The position numbers and the translations under genes were made by a program. The notes beneath the pieces are model-generated. The model ran no database searches, was not told the origin of the DNA, and worked only from the letters and a program-made list of their open reading frames with translations. Below are positions 3,752-8,320 of a stretch of DNA of 64,000 nucleotides, piece by piece. Position 1 is the first letter of the stretch; each line of letters starts with the position of its first letter. The DNA is from Escherichia coli. Lineage in GTDB: Bacteria; Pseudomonadota; Gammaproteobacteria; Enterobacterales; Enterobacteriaceae. The stretch is taken from NCBI RefSeq assembly GCF_045037415.1, contig NZ_CP173438.1; one strand, 5' to 3'.

Positions 3752-3839
3752 GGTGAGGTGTCCGAGTGGCTGAAGGAGCACGCCTGGAAAGTGTGTATAC
3801 GGCAACGTATCGGGGGTTCGAATCCCCCCCTCACCGCCA
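3752..3839 (+). tRNA. serX: tRNA-Ser (GGA anticodon), serX-type
   Basis: 88-nt sequence GGTGAGGTGTCCGAGTGGCTGAAGG…GGTTCGAATCCCCCCCTCACCGCCA with long variable arm and encoded CCA. Confidence 0.95.
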
Positions 3840-3850
3840 TATTTAAAGAA

Positions 3851-3880
3851 GAGCTCGTACGAAAGTACGAGCTTTTTTTT
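3851..3880 (+). terminator. serX rho-independent terminator
   Basis: Stem gagctcgtac/gtacgagc with GAAA loop followed by T8. Confidence 0.8.
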
Positions 3881-3943
3881 CGTATATTGCATACACCGGG
3901 GGGATGAGAAGCCCCAGGCGGAGGTTGACAACTAGCGACAGAC

Positions 3944-5311
3944 TCATTCATCATCCTTGCGGTTGATAAGAATTTCTGCCTCTTTTACTACCACCTTATT
4001 ACGCCCGGTCTCTTTCGCCTCGTAAAGTGCGTTATCAGCCAGTTGATAGATCTCCTTAGGGTTTAACTCATTTTTCTGCGTTACAACAGCGCCAATACTA
4101 ATCGTCACTTTTTGTGGTATGGCGTATTCAGGATTATCGCCAGTTAAACGTTCAACATTTTCCCGAATCCTTTCCGCTAAAGCTTTCGCACATTCAGTAT
4201 CGATCTCCGTCAGCAAGACGCCAAACTCTTCGCCGCCAACGCGCGCTAAAAGGTCATCTGGTCGTATGCTTTTCCCAATGATATTCACCACTGTCTTTAT
4301 CACTTGATCGCCAACCGGATGTCCCCAGGTGTCGTTGACTTTTTTGAAGTGGTCAATATCCATAATCATGACGCAATAAGGTGTTTTTTTGGCCGATGCT
4401 GATTGAACCGTCAGTTCATTAAAAAAATAATTTCTGTTGAATATATTGGTTAAGGGATCGCGATGTGCAATGTCCTTTGTTACTCGTAGCGCACTGAATA
4501 TATGGCACATAAAAATTACCAAAACGGTTAACTTACTGACTACTTCAATAGTGCGACTAATATACCAAATGGACACGCTATACCTGCTCATAAATAACAG
4601 AGAGATATTGTACAGCACGGCACAAAAAGCAATCACCGACACCCCGTTCCAGATATCACAGCGTAAACCATTAAAGTATAGATTAACCGAAAGCAAGGTT
4701 AACCACATGAAAATCATTATGGTAACATATGAGGCTTTCCAAACCACCTGACCATTTTCATTGGTTAACTCGGCAATGTGTAAATCGTAGCTCTCATAAT
4801 GGCTAGAAAATATGTGAGCAACTATCGGCCCCCCAAGAACAAAAAACAAACTTATGCACAAAGTCACTTTTTTGGAAAATAAATTGCGCTGTTTTGTGTT
4901 TTCACTAACTTTATTTATCAATGCCAGAAATATTAACATGCACAAACTCATCTGACGAAACAAATAATAAATTGCAATGTCATTTTGAACAACACTGCTT
5001 GTCAAACGCCCCTCAATAATTTGCTGAATGATAATGACGGTTTTAACAAAGTAAATCAAACAACTTAGAAAAGCCAAACTAAGTATACAGTTTGAAAATT
5101 GCCTACGGTCATAAATGAAATACAACTGCATAAAAATAAATGCAACAGTATCGATAAAAAATAAAGCAATCATAACCATCAGATAGGTTGATCGTGGAAC
5201 AACTTCCTCAACGGTTGGCTGATTGAACCAACTATTAACCAAAACCAATGCAAGCCCAAACAATAAGCTCACTAATACAGTACTACTAATTCCCAAATAG
5301 TCTTTTTCCAT
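3944..5311 (-). CDS. dgcT: Membrane-anchored GGDEF diguanylate cyclase DgcT (YcdT)
   Basis: ORF 3944..5434; start set at ATG 5309-5311 (MEKDYLGISS…); multi-TM N-terminus and C-terminal GGDEF domain (RVGGEEFG); strongly AT-rich. Confidence 0.85.
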   Translation of the reverse strand: MEKDYLGISSTVLVSLLFGLALVLVNSWFNQPTVEEVVPRSTYLMVMIALFFIDTVAFIFMQLYFIYDRRQFSNCILSLAFLSCLIYFVKTVIIIQQIIEGRLTSSVVQNDIAIYYLFRQMSLCMLIFLALINKVSENTKQRNLFSKKVTLCISLFFVLGGPIVAHIFSSHYESYDLHIAELTNENGQVVWKASYVTIMIFMWLTLLSVNLYFNGLRCDIWNGVSVIAFCAVLYNISLLFMSRYSVSIWYISRTIEVVSKLTVLVIFMCHIFSALRVTKDIAHRDPLTNIFNRNYFFNELTVQSASAKKTPYCVMIMDIDHFKKVNDTWGHPVGDQVIKTVVNIIGKSIRPDDLLARVGGEEFGVLLTEIDTECAKALAERIRENVERLTGDNPEYAIPQKVTISIGAVVTQKNELNPKEIYQLADNALYEAKETGRNKVVVKEAEILINRKDDE

Positions 5312-5662
5312 AAAGCTACACCAACCTGTAGGTTGTAGATCCCTTTTTATTATTAATAGATATAAGAACTGTACTGTTGTCAATATGAAAATCCACCCAC
5401 AAACAATACCGATGATGATAGTTGCAGAATGCAATTATTATCACTTTAATGCTTTATACATTTTTTGCTGCAAGGCAGGCGCAAATACTTATAAAAGATT
5501 ATAATAAAATCCTTATAAAGCATTAATTAATAGATACATTAGGAATAACAATTAAATCCGTGAGTGCAGTAGCGCTGCCTTTCATCAGGACTTTCGAAAA
5601 ATCCGAAATCATGCATCGGAATTTACTGATTTAATTATTTTAATCCTAATTTATTTTGAAAA

Positions 5663-5896
5663 AGGTATTGGGATTTATGCCGTATTCCTGAAGATCCTCA
5701 TCATTGGAATGGATTTTCGGGCGAGAAAAGGATTTTATATGGACACTCTGCTCATCATTTCTTCTTCTCATCATCAACAATTCACGTCTCTCTTCCGCGT
5801 TTAATAACGGATTATGAGATGCAAAAATATCTTTCTTTTCAGTTACCTGTAATTAGATACAGAGAGAGATTTTGGCAATACATGGAGTAATACAGG
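5663..5896 (+). promoter_or_regulatory. Probable pgaA 5' leader with GGA (CsrA-type) motifs, including at the SD/start codon
   Basis: AT-rich 594-bp divergent ycdT/pgaA intergenic; GGA motifs at about 5727, 5884, 5894; leader extent taken from literature memory (~234 nt), not visible in sequence. Confidence 0.35.
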
Positions 5897-8320
5897 ATGT
5901 ATTCAAGTAGCAGAAAAAGGTGCCCGAAAACCAAATGGGCTTTGAAAATTCTTACTGCTGCATTTTTAGCAGCGAGTCCCGCGGCGAAGAGTGCTGTTAA
6001 TAACGCCTATGATGCATTGATTATTGAAGCTCGCAAAGGAAATACTCAGCCAGCTTTGTCATGGTTTGCACAAAAATCAACACTCAGTAATAACCAAATT
6101 GCTGACTGGTTACAGATTGCCTTATGGGCCGGGCAAGATAAACAGGTTATTACCGTTTACAACCGCTATCGTCATCAGCAATTACCAGCGCGTGGTTATG
6201 CAGCTGTCGCCGTCGCTTATCGTAACCTGCAACAATGGCAAAACTCGCTTACACTGTGGCAAAAGGCGCTCTCTCTGGAGCCGCAAAATAAGGATTATCA
6301 ACGGGGACAAATTTTAACCCTGGCAGATGCGGGTCACTATGATACTGCGCTGTTTAAACTTAAGCAGCTTAAATCTGGAGCACCGGACAAAGCCAATTTA
6401 CTCGCAGAAGCCTATATCTATAAACTGACGGGGCGTTATCAGGATGAATTACGGGCGATGACAGAGTCATTACCTGAAAATGCATCTAAGCAACAATATC
6501 CCACAGAATACGTGCTGGCATTACGTAATAATCAACTAGCTGCCGCGATTGACGATGCCAATTTAACGCCAGATATTCGCGCTGATATTCATGCCGAACT
6601 GGTCAGACTGTCGTTTATGCCTACGCGCAGTGAAAATGAACGTTATGCCATTGCCGATCGCGCCCTCGCCCAATACGCTGCATTAGAAATTCTGTGGCAC
6701 GATAACCCAGACCGCACTGCCCAGTACCAGCGTATTCAGGTTGATCATCTTGGCGCGTTATTAACTCGCGATCGTTATAGAGACGTTATTTCTCACTATC
6801 AGCGTTTAAAAAAGACGGGGCAAATTATTCCGCCCTGGGCGCTATATTGGGTTGCGTCGGCTTATCTCAAAGATCAGCAGCCGAAAAAAGCACAGTCAAT
6901 AATGACCGAGCTCTTTTATAACAAGGAAACCATTGCCACGGATTTATCCGATGAAGAACTTGCGGATCTCTTTTACAGCCACCTGGAGAGTGAAAATTAT
7001 CCCGGCGCGCTAACTGTCACCAAACATACCATTAATACTTCGCCGCCTTTCCTTCGGCTAATGGGCACGCCTACGAGCATCCCGAATGATACCTGGTTAC
7101 AGGGGCATTCGTTTCTCTCAACCGTAGCAAAATATAGTAATGATCTTCCTCAAGCTGAAATAACAACCAGAGAACTTGCTTATAACGCACCAGGAAATCA
7201 GGGACTGCGCATCGATTACGCGAGTGTGTTACAAGCCCGCGGTTGGCCTCGTGCGGCAGAAAATGAATTAAAAAAAGCAGAAGTGATCGAGCCACGTAAT
7301 ATTAATCTGGAGGTTGAACAAGCCTGGACAGCATTAACGTTACAAGAATGGCAGCAGGCAGCTGTCTTAACCCACGATGTTGTCGAACGTGAACCGCAAG
7401 ATCCCGGCGTTGTACGATTAAAACGTGCGGTTGATGTACATAATCTTGCAGAGCTTCGTATCGCTGGCTCAACAGGAATTGATGCCGAAGGTCCAGATAG
7501 TGGCAAACATGATGTCGACTTAACCACCATCGTTTATTCACCACCGCTGAATGATAACTGGCGCGGTTTTGCTGGATTCGGTTATGCCGATGGACAATTT
7601 AGCGAAGGAAAAGGGATTGTTCGCGACTGGCTGGCAGGTGTTGAGTGGCGGTCACGTAATATCTGGCTCGAGGCGGAGTACGCTGAACGCTTTTTCAATC
7701 ATGAGCATAAACCCGGCGCGCGCCTGTCTGGCTGGTATGATTTTAATGATAACTGGCGTATTGGTTCGCAACTGGAACGCCTCTCTCACCGCGTTCCATT
7801 ACGGGCAATGAAAAATGGTGTTACAGGCAACAGCGCACAGGCTTATGTTCGCTGGTATCAAAATGAGCGGCGTAAGTACGGTGTCTCCTGGGCTTTCACT
7901 GATTTTTCCGACAGTAACCAGCGTCATGAAGTCTCAATTGAGGGTCAAGAACGCATCTGGTCTTCACCATATTTGATTGTCGATTTCCTACCCAATCTGT
8001 ATTACGAACAAAATACAGAACACGACACCCCATACTACAACCCTATAAAAATGTTCGATATTGTTCCGGCATTTGAGGCAAGTCATTTGTTATGGCGAAG
8101 CTATGAAAATAGCTGGGAGCAAATATTCAGCGCAGGTGTTGGTGCCTCCTGGCAAAAACATTATGGCACGGATGTCGTCACCCAACTCGGCTACGGGCAA
8201 CGTATTAGCTGGAATGACGTGATTGATGCTGGCGCAACGCTACGCTGGGAAAAACGACCTTATGACGGTGACAGAGAACACAACTTATACGTTGAATTCG
8301 ATATGACATTCAGATTTTAA
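5897..8320 (+). CDS. pgaA: PGA (poly-beta-1,6-GlcNAc) outer-membrane export porin PgaA
   Basis: 807-aa ORF with signal peptide, TPR region and C-terminal beta-barrel; heads pgaABCD. Confidence 0.95.
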   Translation: MYSSSRKRCPKTKWALKILTAAFLAASPAAKSAVNNAYDALIIEARKGNTQPALSWFAQKSTLSNNQIADWLQIALWAGQDKQVITVYNRYRHQQLPARGYAAVAVAYRNLQQWQNSLTLWQKALSLEPQNKDYQRGQILTLADAGHYDTALFKLKQLKSGAPDKANLLAEAYIYKLTGRYQDELRAMTESLPENASKQQYPTEYVLALRNNQLAAAIDDANLTPDIRADIHAELVRLSFMPTRSENERYAIADRALAQYAALEILWHDNPDRTAQYQRIQVDHLGALLTRDRYRDVISHYQRLKKTGQIIPPWALYWVASAYLKDQQPKKAQSIMTELFYNKETIATDLSDEELADLFYSHLESENYPGALTVTKHTINTSPPFLRLMGTPTSIPNDTWLQGHSFLSTVAKYSNDLPQAEITTRELAYNAPGNQGLRIDYASVLQARGWPRAAENELKKAEVIEPRNINLEVEQAWTALTLQEWQQAAVLTHDVVEREPQDPGVVRLKRAVDVHNLAELRIAGSTGIDAEGPDSGKHDVDLTTIVYSPPLNDNWRGFAGFGYADGQFSEGKGIVRDWLAGVEWRSRNIWLEAEYAERFFNHEHKPGARLSGWYDFNDNWRIGSQLERLSHRVPLRAMKNGVTGNSAQAYVRWYQNERRKYGVSWAFTDFSDSNQRHEVSIEGQERIWSSPYLIVDFLPNLYYEQNTEHDTPYYNPIKMFDIVPAFEASHLLWRSYENSWEQIFSAGVGASWQKHYGTDVVTQLGYGQRISWNDVIDAGATLRWEKRPYDGDREHNLYVEFDMTFRF

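Follow-up and report, generated by a model that had tools for sequence, protein, structure and literature searches.

The 21-codon open reading frame in the pgaA leader of Escherichia coli is probably a compositional by-product of the CsrA/Rho attenuator

INTRODUCTION

The pgaABCD operon makes the PGA biofilm adhesin, and the pgaA leader is a textbook case of multi-layer control by CsrA, whose binding sites in this leader reportedly go back to Wang et al. 2005. Other Rho-dependent attenuators, namely those of tnaC-tnaA, mgtL-mgtA and corL-corA, are controlled by leader peptides. The tnaC, mgtL and corL frames are translated and contain conserved sensing codons or arrest sequences, and mutations of their starts change downstream expression.

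For the leader of E. coli K-12, both CsrA binding and Rho termination have been shown experimentally (PMC4052769). The segment from +61 to +107 folds into a weak hairpin, the left arm of which bears two 5'-proximal CsrA sites, and the binding of CsrA was inferred to nucleate at the first of them (PMC4052769). That CsrA opens this hairpin and exposes the rut site, at which Rho acts to terminate transcription, was demonstrated by deletions, by point mutants that make the hairpin more or less stable and by in vitro transcription in a purified system; deletion of the right-arm segment raised pgaA-lacZ about 10-fold and was epistatic to rho and nusG mutations (PMC4052769). [quoted passage not shown] A 2020 review calls the pgaA leader noncoding (PMC7652899), and a 2025 review of Rho gives for pgaA the hairpin mechanism alone. 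In the attenuator paper, published in 2014, the AUG of a 'putative leader peptide' was reportedly mutated with no effect on pgaA, in a test that used a lacZ fusion moved into Salmonella (PMC4052769).

A further related system is the iraD leader (Park et al. 2017, via PMC7652899), which likewise has a short ORF, several CsrA sites and an SD-like sequence that is itself a GGA site; its upstream ORF (uORF) is translationally coupled to iraD. Here we describe how a 21-codon ORF in the pgaA leader of another E. coli strain compares with these systems.

MATERIALS AND METHODS

The window is a stretch of 64,000 nucleotides of E. coli DNA (contig NZ_CP173438.1, assembly GCF_045037415.1), and all positions refer to it. 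The transcription start site (+1 = 5663) was taken from the literature, where a fragment from -124 to +234 was used (PMC4052769). Seven lineages of dgcT-linked pga loci were compared. A scan of genome contigs for PgaA gave four loci, and further lineages were obtained via PgaA clusters and their contigs; the first PgaA search, with a 300-aa fragment, had returned mostly partial proteins. One of the seven is typical E. coli. The lineages L007 (with L017 and L021), L011 and L019 (with L020) are divergent alleles with PgaA identities of 79-80%, L012 is an enterobacterial contig (76%), and L008 and L009 are Citrobacter sp. Awk 4 (74%) and Citrobacter sp. NCU1 (73%), respectively.

RESULTS

The ORF lies on the published attenuator

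The ORF sits in a 585-bp region between pgaA and the divergent dgcT gene (ycdT, annotated start 5311, minus strand). The features of the region are as follows.

5663..5896, plus strand: pgaA 5' untranslated leader (+1 to +234); the pgaA AUG is +235 (PMC4052769) and its ATG is at 5897
5712..5792, plus strand: C>G 'bubble' (+50 to +130), the Rho loading region or rut site (PMC4052769; GC skew)
5723..5743, plus strand: left arm of the anti-terminator hairpin (+61 to +81), purine-rich (published coordinates, deletion analysis)
5744..5769, plus strand: right arm of the hairpin (+82 to +107), the 5' half of rut (PMC4052769; pairing reproduced here)
5739-5804, plus strand: 21-codon ORF (ATG 5739, TAA 5802-5804; leader +77 to +142), translating to MDTLLIISSSHHQQFTSLFRV and a stop
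5884..5899, plus strand: pgaA translation initiation region (GGAG 5884-5887, GGAUG 5895-5899)
5897..8320, plus strand: pgaA coding sequence, 807 aa (RefSeq annotation of identical DNA; homologues named PgaA)

The segment 5435-5960 is 100% identical in DNA sequence to E. coli SK1144, in which dgcT and pgaA are annotated on either side, and matches 4,282 of 5,426 complete E. coli genomes. Over the hairpin and rut the window equals K-12, and in the leader as a whole the differences from K-12 are single bases, for example at 5666 and 5819. The window thus has the same left arm, right arm and rut layout, at the same coordinates, as the pgaA attenuator of Figueroa-Bossi et al. (2014, Genes Dev 28:1239); the first base of the ORF AUG is +77 by our own count and +78 in that paper, and the element is otherwise identical. 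No promoter or terminator was found in a consensus scan of the plus strand, and no Rfam family matched 5300-5950 at E ≤ 1.

The first-pass annotation of this DNA had placed a 21-codon ORF at 5738-5803, with AAAGGA 8 nt before its ATG. The ORF exists, but one base further on, since 5738-5803 is a different frame; AAAGGA occupies 5727-5732 and the spacer is 6 nt. The assignment of the ORF to the CsrA-regulated pgaA leader was borne out, as the published anatomy of the element maps onto the ORF base for base. The left arm holds two GGA motifs, one at 5730-5732 (+68, inside AAAGGA) and one at 5741-5743 (+79, in AUGGA), the latter overlapping the AUG of the ORF. AAAGGA, which had been read as an SD sequence, is not free: of the pair of 5'-proximal CsrA sites it is the first. 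Folding predicts two paired segments, GAGAA and AGGA (5723-5732) with UCUU and UUCUC (5760-5769), and AUGG (5739-5742) with UCAU (5752-5755). The ensemble probability of being unpaired was at most 0.10 for AGGA and 0.05-0.26 for the AUG. The minimum free energy of the hairpin was -7.9 to -8.8 kcal/mol, not better than that of shuffles (z = -0.5), in line with the 'borderline stability' described by the authors (PMC4052769). The ORF itself has 21 C and 6 G in its 66 nt, and the minimum of the GC skew (-0.64, at 5735-5794) falls over it. The body of the ORF is the rut site of the Rho-dependent attenuator.

Further downstream, GGAG 5884-5887 and GGAUG 5895-5899 would be the carriers of the two distal CsrA sites, judging from the description in PMC7652899, and CsrA sites 3 to 6 as a whole are placed here provisionally, from GGA motifs and reviews. 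The sequence TACAGGATGTAT of the pgaA initiation region was invariant in all seven lineages.

The length of the ORF is expected from its composition

A closed ATG-initiated ORF of at least 21 codons was present in 54% of 5000 dinucleotide-preserving shuffles of the 234-nt leader, and 10% of the 5000 shuffled leaders had such an ORF with an SD-like 4-mer 5-10 nt upstream. When the ATG was held fixed, a frame of 21 codons or more survived in 38-53% of dinucleotide shuffles. None of the three frames is interrupted by a stop over the 66 nt in E. coli, the other two because only 6 G occur in this stretch. The length of the ORF is not beyond chance for its composition. A chance ORF in AT-rich DNA had been one of the options offered in the first-pass annotation. 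The shuffles, the open frames and a ratio of replacement to silent change near 1 (see below) favour chance, but the openness comes from the poverty in G of a segment that coincides with rut, and not from AT-richness.

Annotation and the start-codon test

The annotation of MG1655 includes many curated small proteins. The interval from pgaA to dgcT is free of annotated CDSs in MG1655 and in the six other RefSeq genomes inspected, and the exact 21-aa sequence was not found among about 15 billion proteins. A text search of the literature yielded no ribosome-profiling report for a pgaA uORF, and the supplementary data searched from profiling and ORF-mapping papers contained only chance 'PGAA' strings in protein sequences.

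No description of the ORF was known to the first-pass annotation; the idea of a leader peptide is in fact already present in Figueroa-Bossi et al. 2014 (PMC4052769). AUG triplets occur in the leader at +15, +47, +77, +152, +157 and +220. The ATG at 5739 is the start of the 'putative leader peptide' that was mutated there, because it is the only AUG near +78. In MG1655 coordinates this AUG falls at about 1,092,447, on the minus strand.

Possible translation of the ORF as a means of keeping Rho off

The ORF in the pgaA leader has in common with tnaC, mgtL and corL that it is a short ORF overlapping or preceding rut, where ribosome occupancy could control the loading of Rho. None of the hallmarks of those three systems (demonstrated translation, sensing codons, an effect of start mutations) is known to hold for it. 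An arrangement of that kind would have ribosomes start at AUG 5739 when CsrA is low, cover rut and keep Rho off, while CsrA bound to AAAGGA would block initiation and so expose rut; translation itself, not the peptide, would matter. We consider this explanation unlikely, although it survives better than the other alternatives. It has a precedent, as CsrA represses the uORF of the iraD leader (PMC7652899), and the ORF covers the rut region almost exactly. The iraD type of coupling, in which the stop of the uORF overlaps or abuts the main start, does not apply to the pgaA leader, where 92 nt separate the stop of the ORF (which ends at 5804) from the pgaA ATG (5897). Also unlike the iraD uORF, the ORF of the pgaA leader has a start-codon mutant that reportedly left pgaA unaffected (PMC4052769), and this is evidence against regulation by translation as such. 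The structure mutants and the ribosome-free in vitro transcription of the same work account for the regulation (PMC4052769), the SD and the AUG are both paired in the predicted hairpin, and the length of the ORF is explained by composition.

The comparison with relatives bears on this question from both sides. Within E. coli the leader is 96% conserved, with two replacement and two silent differences in the ORF, and is uninformative because the sequences are too similar. An ATG-initiated ORF was present in all seven lineages, with lengths of 21, 21, 21, 20, 19, 20 and 10 codons. Six of the seven have ORFs of 19-21 codons with a similar end point, and L019 shows an in-frame deletion of 3 nt; both speak for a translated frame. 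In the two pga loci that are distant and have other neighbours (L013, PgaA 58%; L015, 52%) no counterpart of the ORF was found. The block AAGGA-N6-ATG (AAAGGATTTnATATG) was invariant in six of the seven lineages, all but L012. Among these six, 67 of 243 leader columns (28%) are invariant and are clustered in few blocks: TACAGGATGTAT of the pgaA initiation region, a 5' stem-loop, and AAAGGATTT followed by ATATG. Within this last block AAAGGAUUU can be read, from its sequence, as CsrA site 1, a GGA flanked by runs of A and U. The ATG is less simply explained. Four to five of the six lineages (L007, L011, L019 and both Citrobacter) no longer have the second GGA, ATGGA having become ATGAA or ATGAG, yet they keep the ATG, so that CsrA site 2 cannot explain its retention there. 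In the Escherichia-like lineages, pairing in the modelled hairpin would explain why U and G of the AUG are kept, and the A less well; it would not account for the AUG in Citrobacter, for which a comparable hairpin was not predicted.

The lineage L012 can be cited for either view. Its homologous ATG is AAG, and 6 nt further downstream there is an ATG of the same frame, so that the start has moved yet stayed in frame, as regulation by translation would predict. Against this, the replacement ATG follows one AAGGA at a distance of 1 nt and the other at 12 nt, both poor geometries for initiation. In L009 a 1-nt indel just after the ATG, relative to L008, and a new TAG leave an ORF of 10 codons, which would not cover the pyrimidine tract.

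A narrower proposal is that AUG 5739 is a real, conserved initiation site from which the frame that covers rut is translated at a low level, or under conditions outside the 2014 test. Such conditions may include E. coli rather than Salmonella as the reporter host, low CsrA, high NhaR activity or growth as a biofilm. We give this proposal a small chance of being correct. It is suggested by the invariance of the initiation block despite the loss of the second GGA, together with the in-frame replacement ATG of L012, and the conservation of the ATG on which it draws comes from seven lineages, too few for statistics.

The putative peptide

It is highly improbable that the ORF encodes a 21-aa small protein that functions in its own right. 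Several lineages share a C-terminal SLF(R/L) motif, which would be in keeping with a conserved protein, but it is explained equally well by the conserved nucleotides UCUCUUCC. Between E. coli and the lineages L007, L011 and L019, pS was 0.14-0.21 and pN 0.13-0.15, giving pN/pS of about 1, and substitutions were distributed about equally over the codon positions (for example 4:3:3), with no excess at third positions. No purifying selection on the amino-acid sequence of the ORF was seen in these comparisons. The first-pass annotation had named synonymous-site patterns as a check on the ORF, and its outcome is unfavourable to conservation of a coding frame. Neither Citrobacter peptide is related in sequence to that of E. 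coli, and one of them is frameshifted to 10 aa; the absence of the peptide from the protein collection searched and from the MG1655 annotation points the same way.

Read back to an upstream ATG at 5709, missed in the first-pass annotation, the frame stays open and has 31 codons (beginning MDFRARKGFYMDTLL), and this longer form appears as an automatic 'hypothetical protein' in IMG on 3 contigs and as a partial ORF call at NCBI that is a contig-edge artefact; we give it virtually no credence as the real product and rule it out for lack of conservation, since its ATG has no SD-like sequence upstream, is put out of frame by a 1-nt insertion in L007 and L011 (with a stop after 6 codons) and is missing in L012 and Citrobacter. 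A third member of the 31-aa cluster, a protein of 389 aa, is unrelated.

Other features of the leader and its surroundings

A stem-loop is present at the 5' end of the leader (5664-5681, +2 to +19), with GGUAU and AUGCC around the loop UGGGAUUU, which contains a GGA; it is upstream of the two 5'-proximal CsrA sites named in PMC4052769. Its 4-bp core GCAU/AUGC and the loop GGA were kept in all eight sequences compared, with a single compensatory change in L012 (ACAU/AUGU) and, in the window, a single G-U wobble. The covariation, one compensatory pair, is no different from that of shuffles. From its appearance the structure looks like a CsrA site presented by a hairpin, or like a protective structure at the 5' end. 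Two more GGA motifs occur at 5704-5712 (UUGGAAUGGAUUUU, +44 and +49), just upstream of the published left arm, and the GGGAUGG of this region is kept in L007, L011 and L019.

A second upstream ORF, of 23 codons (MQKYLSFQLPVIRYRERFWQYME), extends over 5819-5890 and ends 6 nt before the pgaA AUG; it starts with ATG in the window and with GTG in K-12. Just after its start there is a run of A (5823-5827) whose length is 5 in both the window and K-12, 6 in EC2641, 9 in TUM1886 and 10 in NMBU_W05E18. The variable run shifts the frame between strains, so the 23-codon ORF is not kept as such. The homopolymer varies naturally in length and is situated in the distal leader, close to the predicted site of Rho termination (about +200, PMC4052769).

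On the other side of the region, dgcT ends about 105 nt from a tRNA-Ser(GGA) gene (3752-3839) in the window (region 3752-3944), whereas at the corresponding place in MG1655 (1094234-1096829) dgcT is followed by IS3D, the ymdE pseudogene and ycdU; compared with the MG1655 layout, the closeness of dgcT to the tRNA gene indicates that the window is without that insertion. The lineages L007, L011 and L019 came from genomes labelled E. coli and from metagenomes, although their PgaA shares no more than 79-80% identity with the common form, and in 64 complete genomes the leader matched at less than 90% identity. Such deep allelic divergence of pga, unusual for a chromosomal locus, suggests import by recombination.

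DISCUSSION

The 21-codon frame in the pgaA leader is, probably, a compositional by-product of the known CsrA/Rho attenuator and not a gene. [quoted passage not shown] To this we add that the SD-like AAAGGA would be CsrA site 1, that the AUG would belong both to CsrA site 2 and to the upper stem, and that the frame would be open for 21 codons because a G-poor rut site can hardly contain the stops TAG and TGA. Whichever state the switch is in, AAAGGA and the AUG would then both be engaged, either in the hairpin or by CsrA.

The leader-peptide idea was known before this analysis; in the attenuator-defining paper it was reportedly both raised and rejected by experiment (PMC4052769). Because of this, the ORF adds nothing to the picture of pgaA control. 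The conservation of the ATG is a small loose end: if AUG 5739 is a real initiation site after all, its use would add a layer of ribosome occupancy to the CsrA/Rho switch. With the frame regarded as a by-product of the attenuator, the case carries a practical lesson for ORF scanning. Since rut sites are G-poor and nearly free of stops, and since CsrA sites (A/GGA) resemble SD sequences, leaders controlled by CsrA and Rho would often yield convincing but spurious uORFs.
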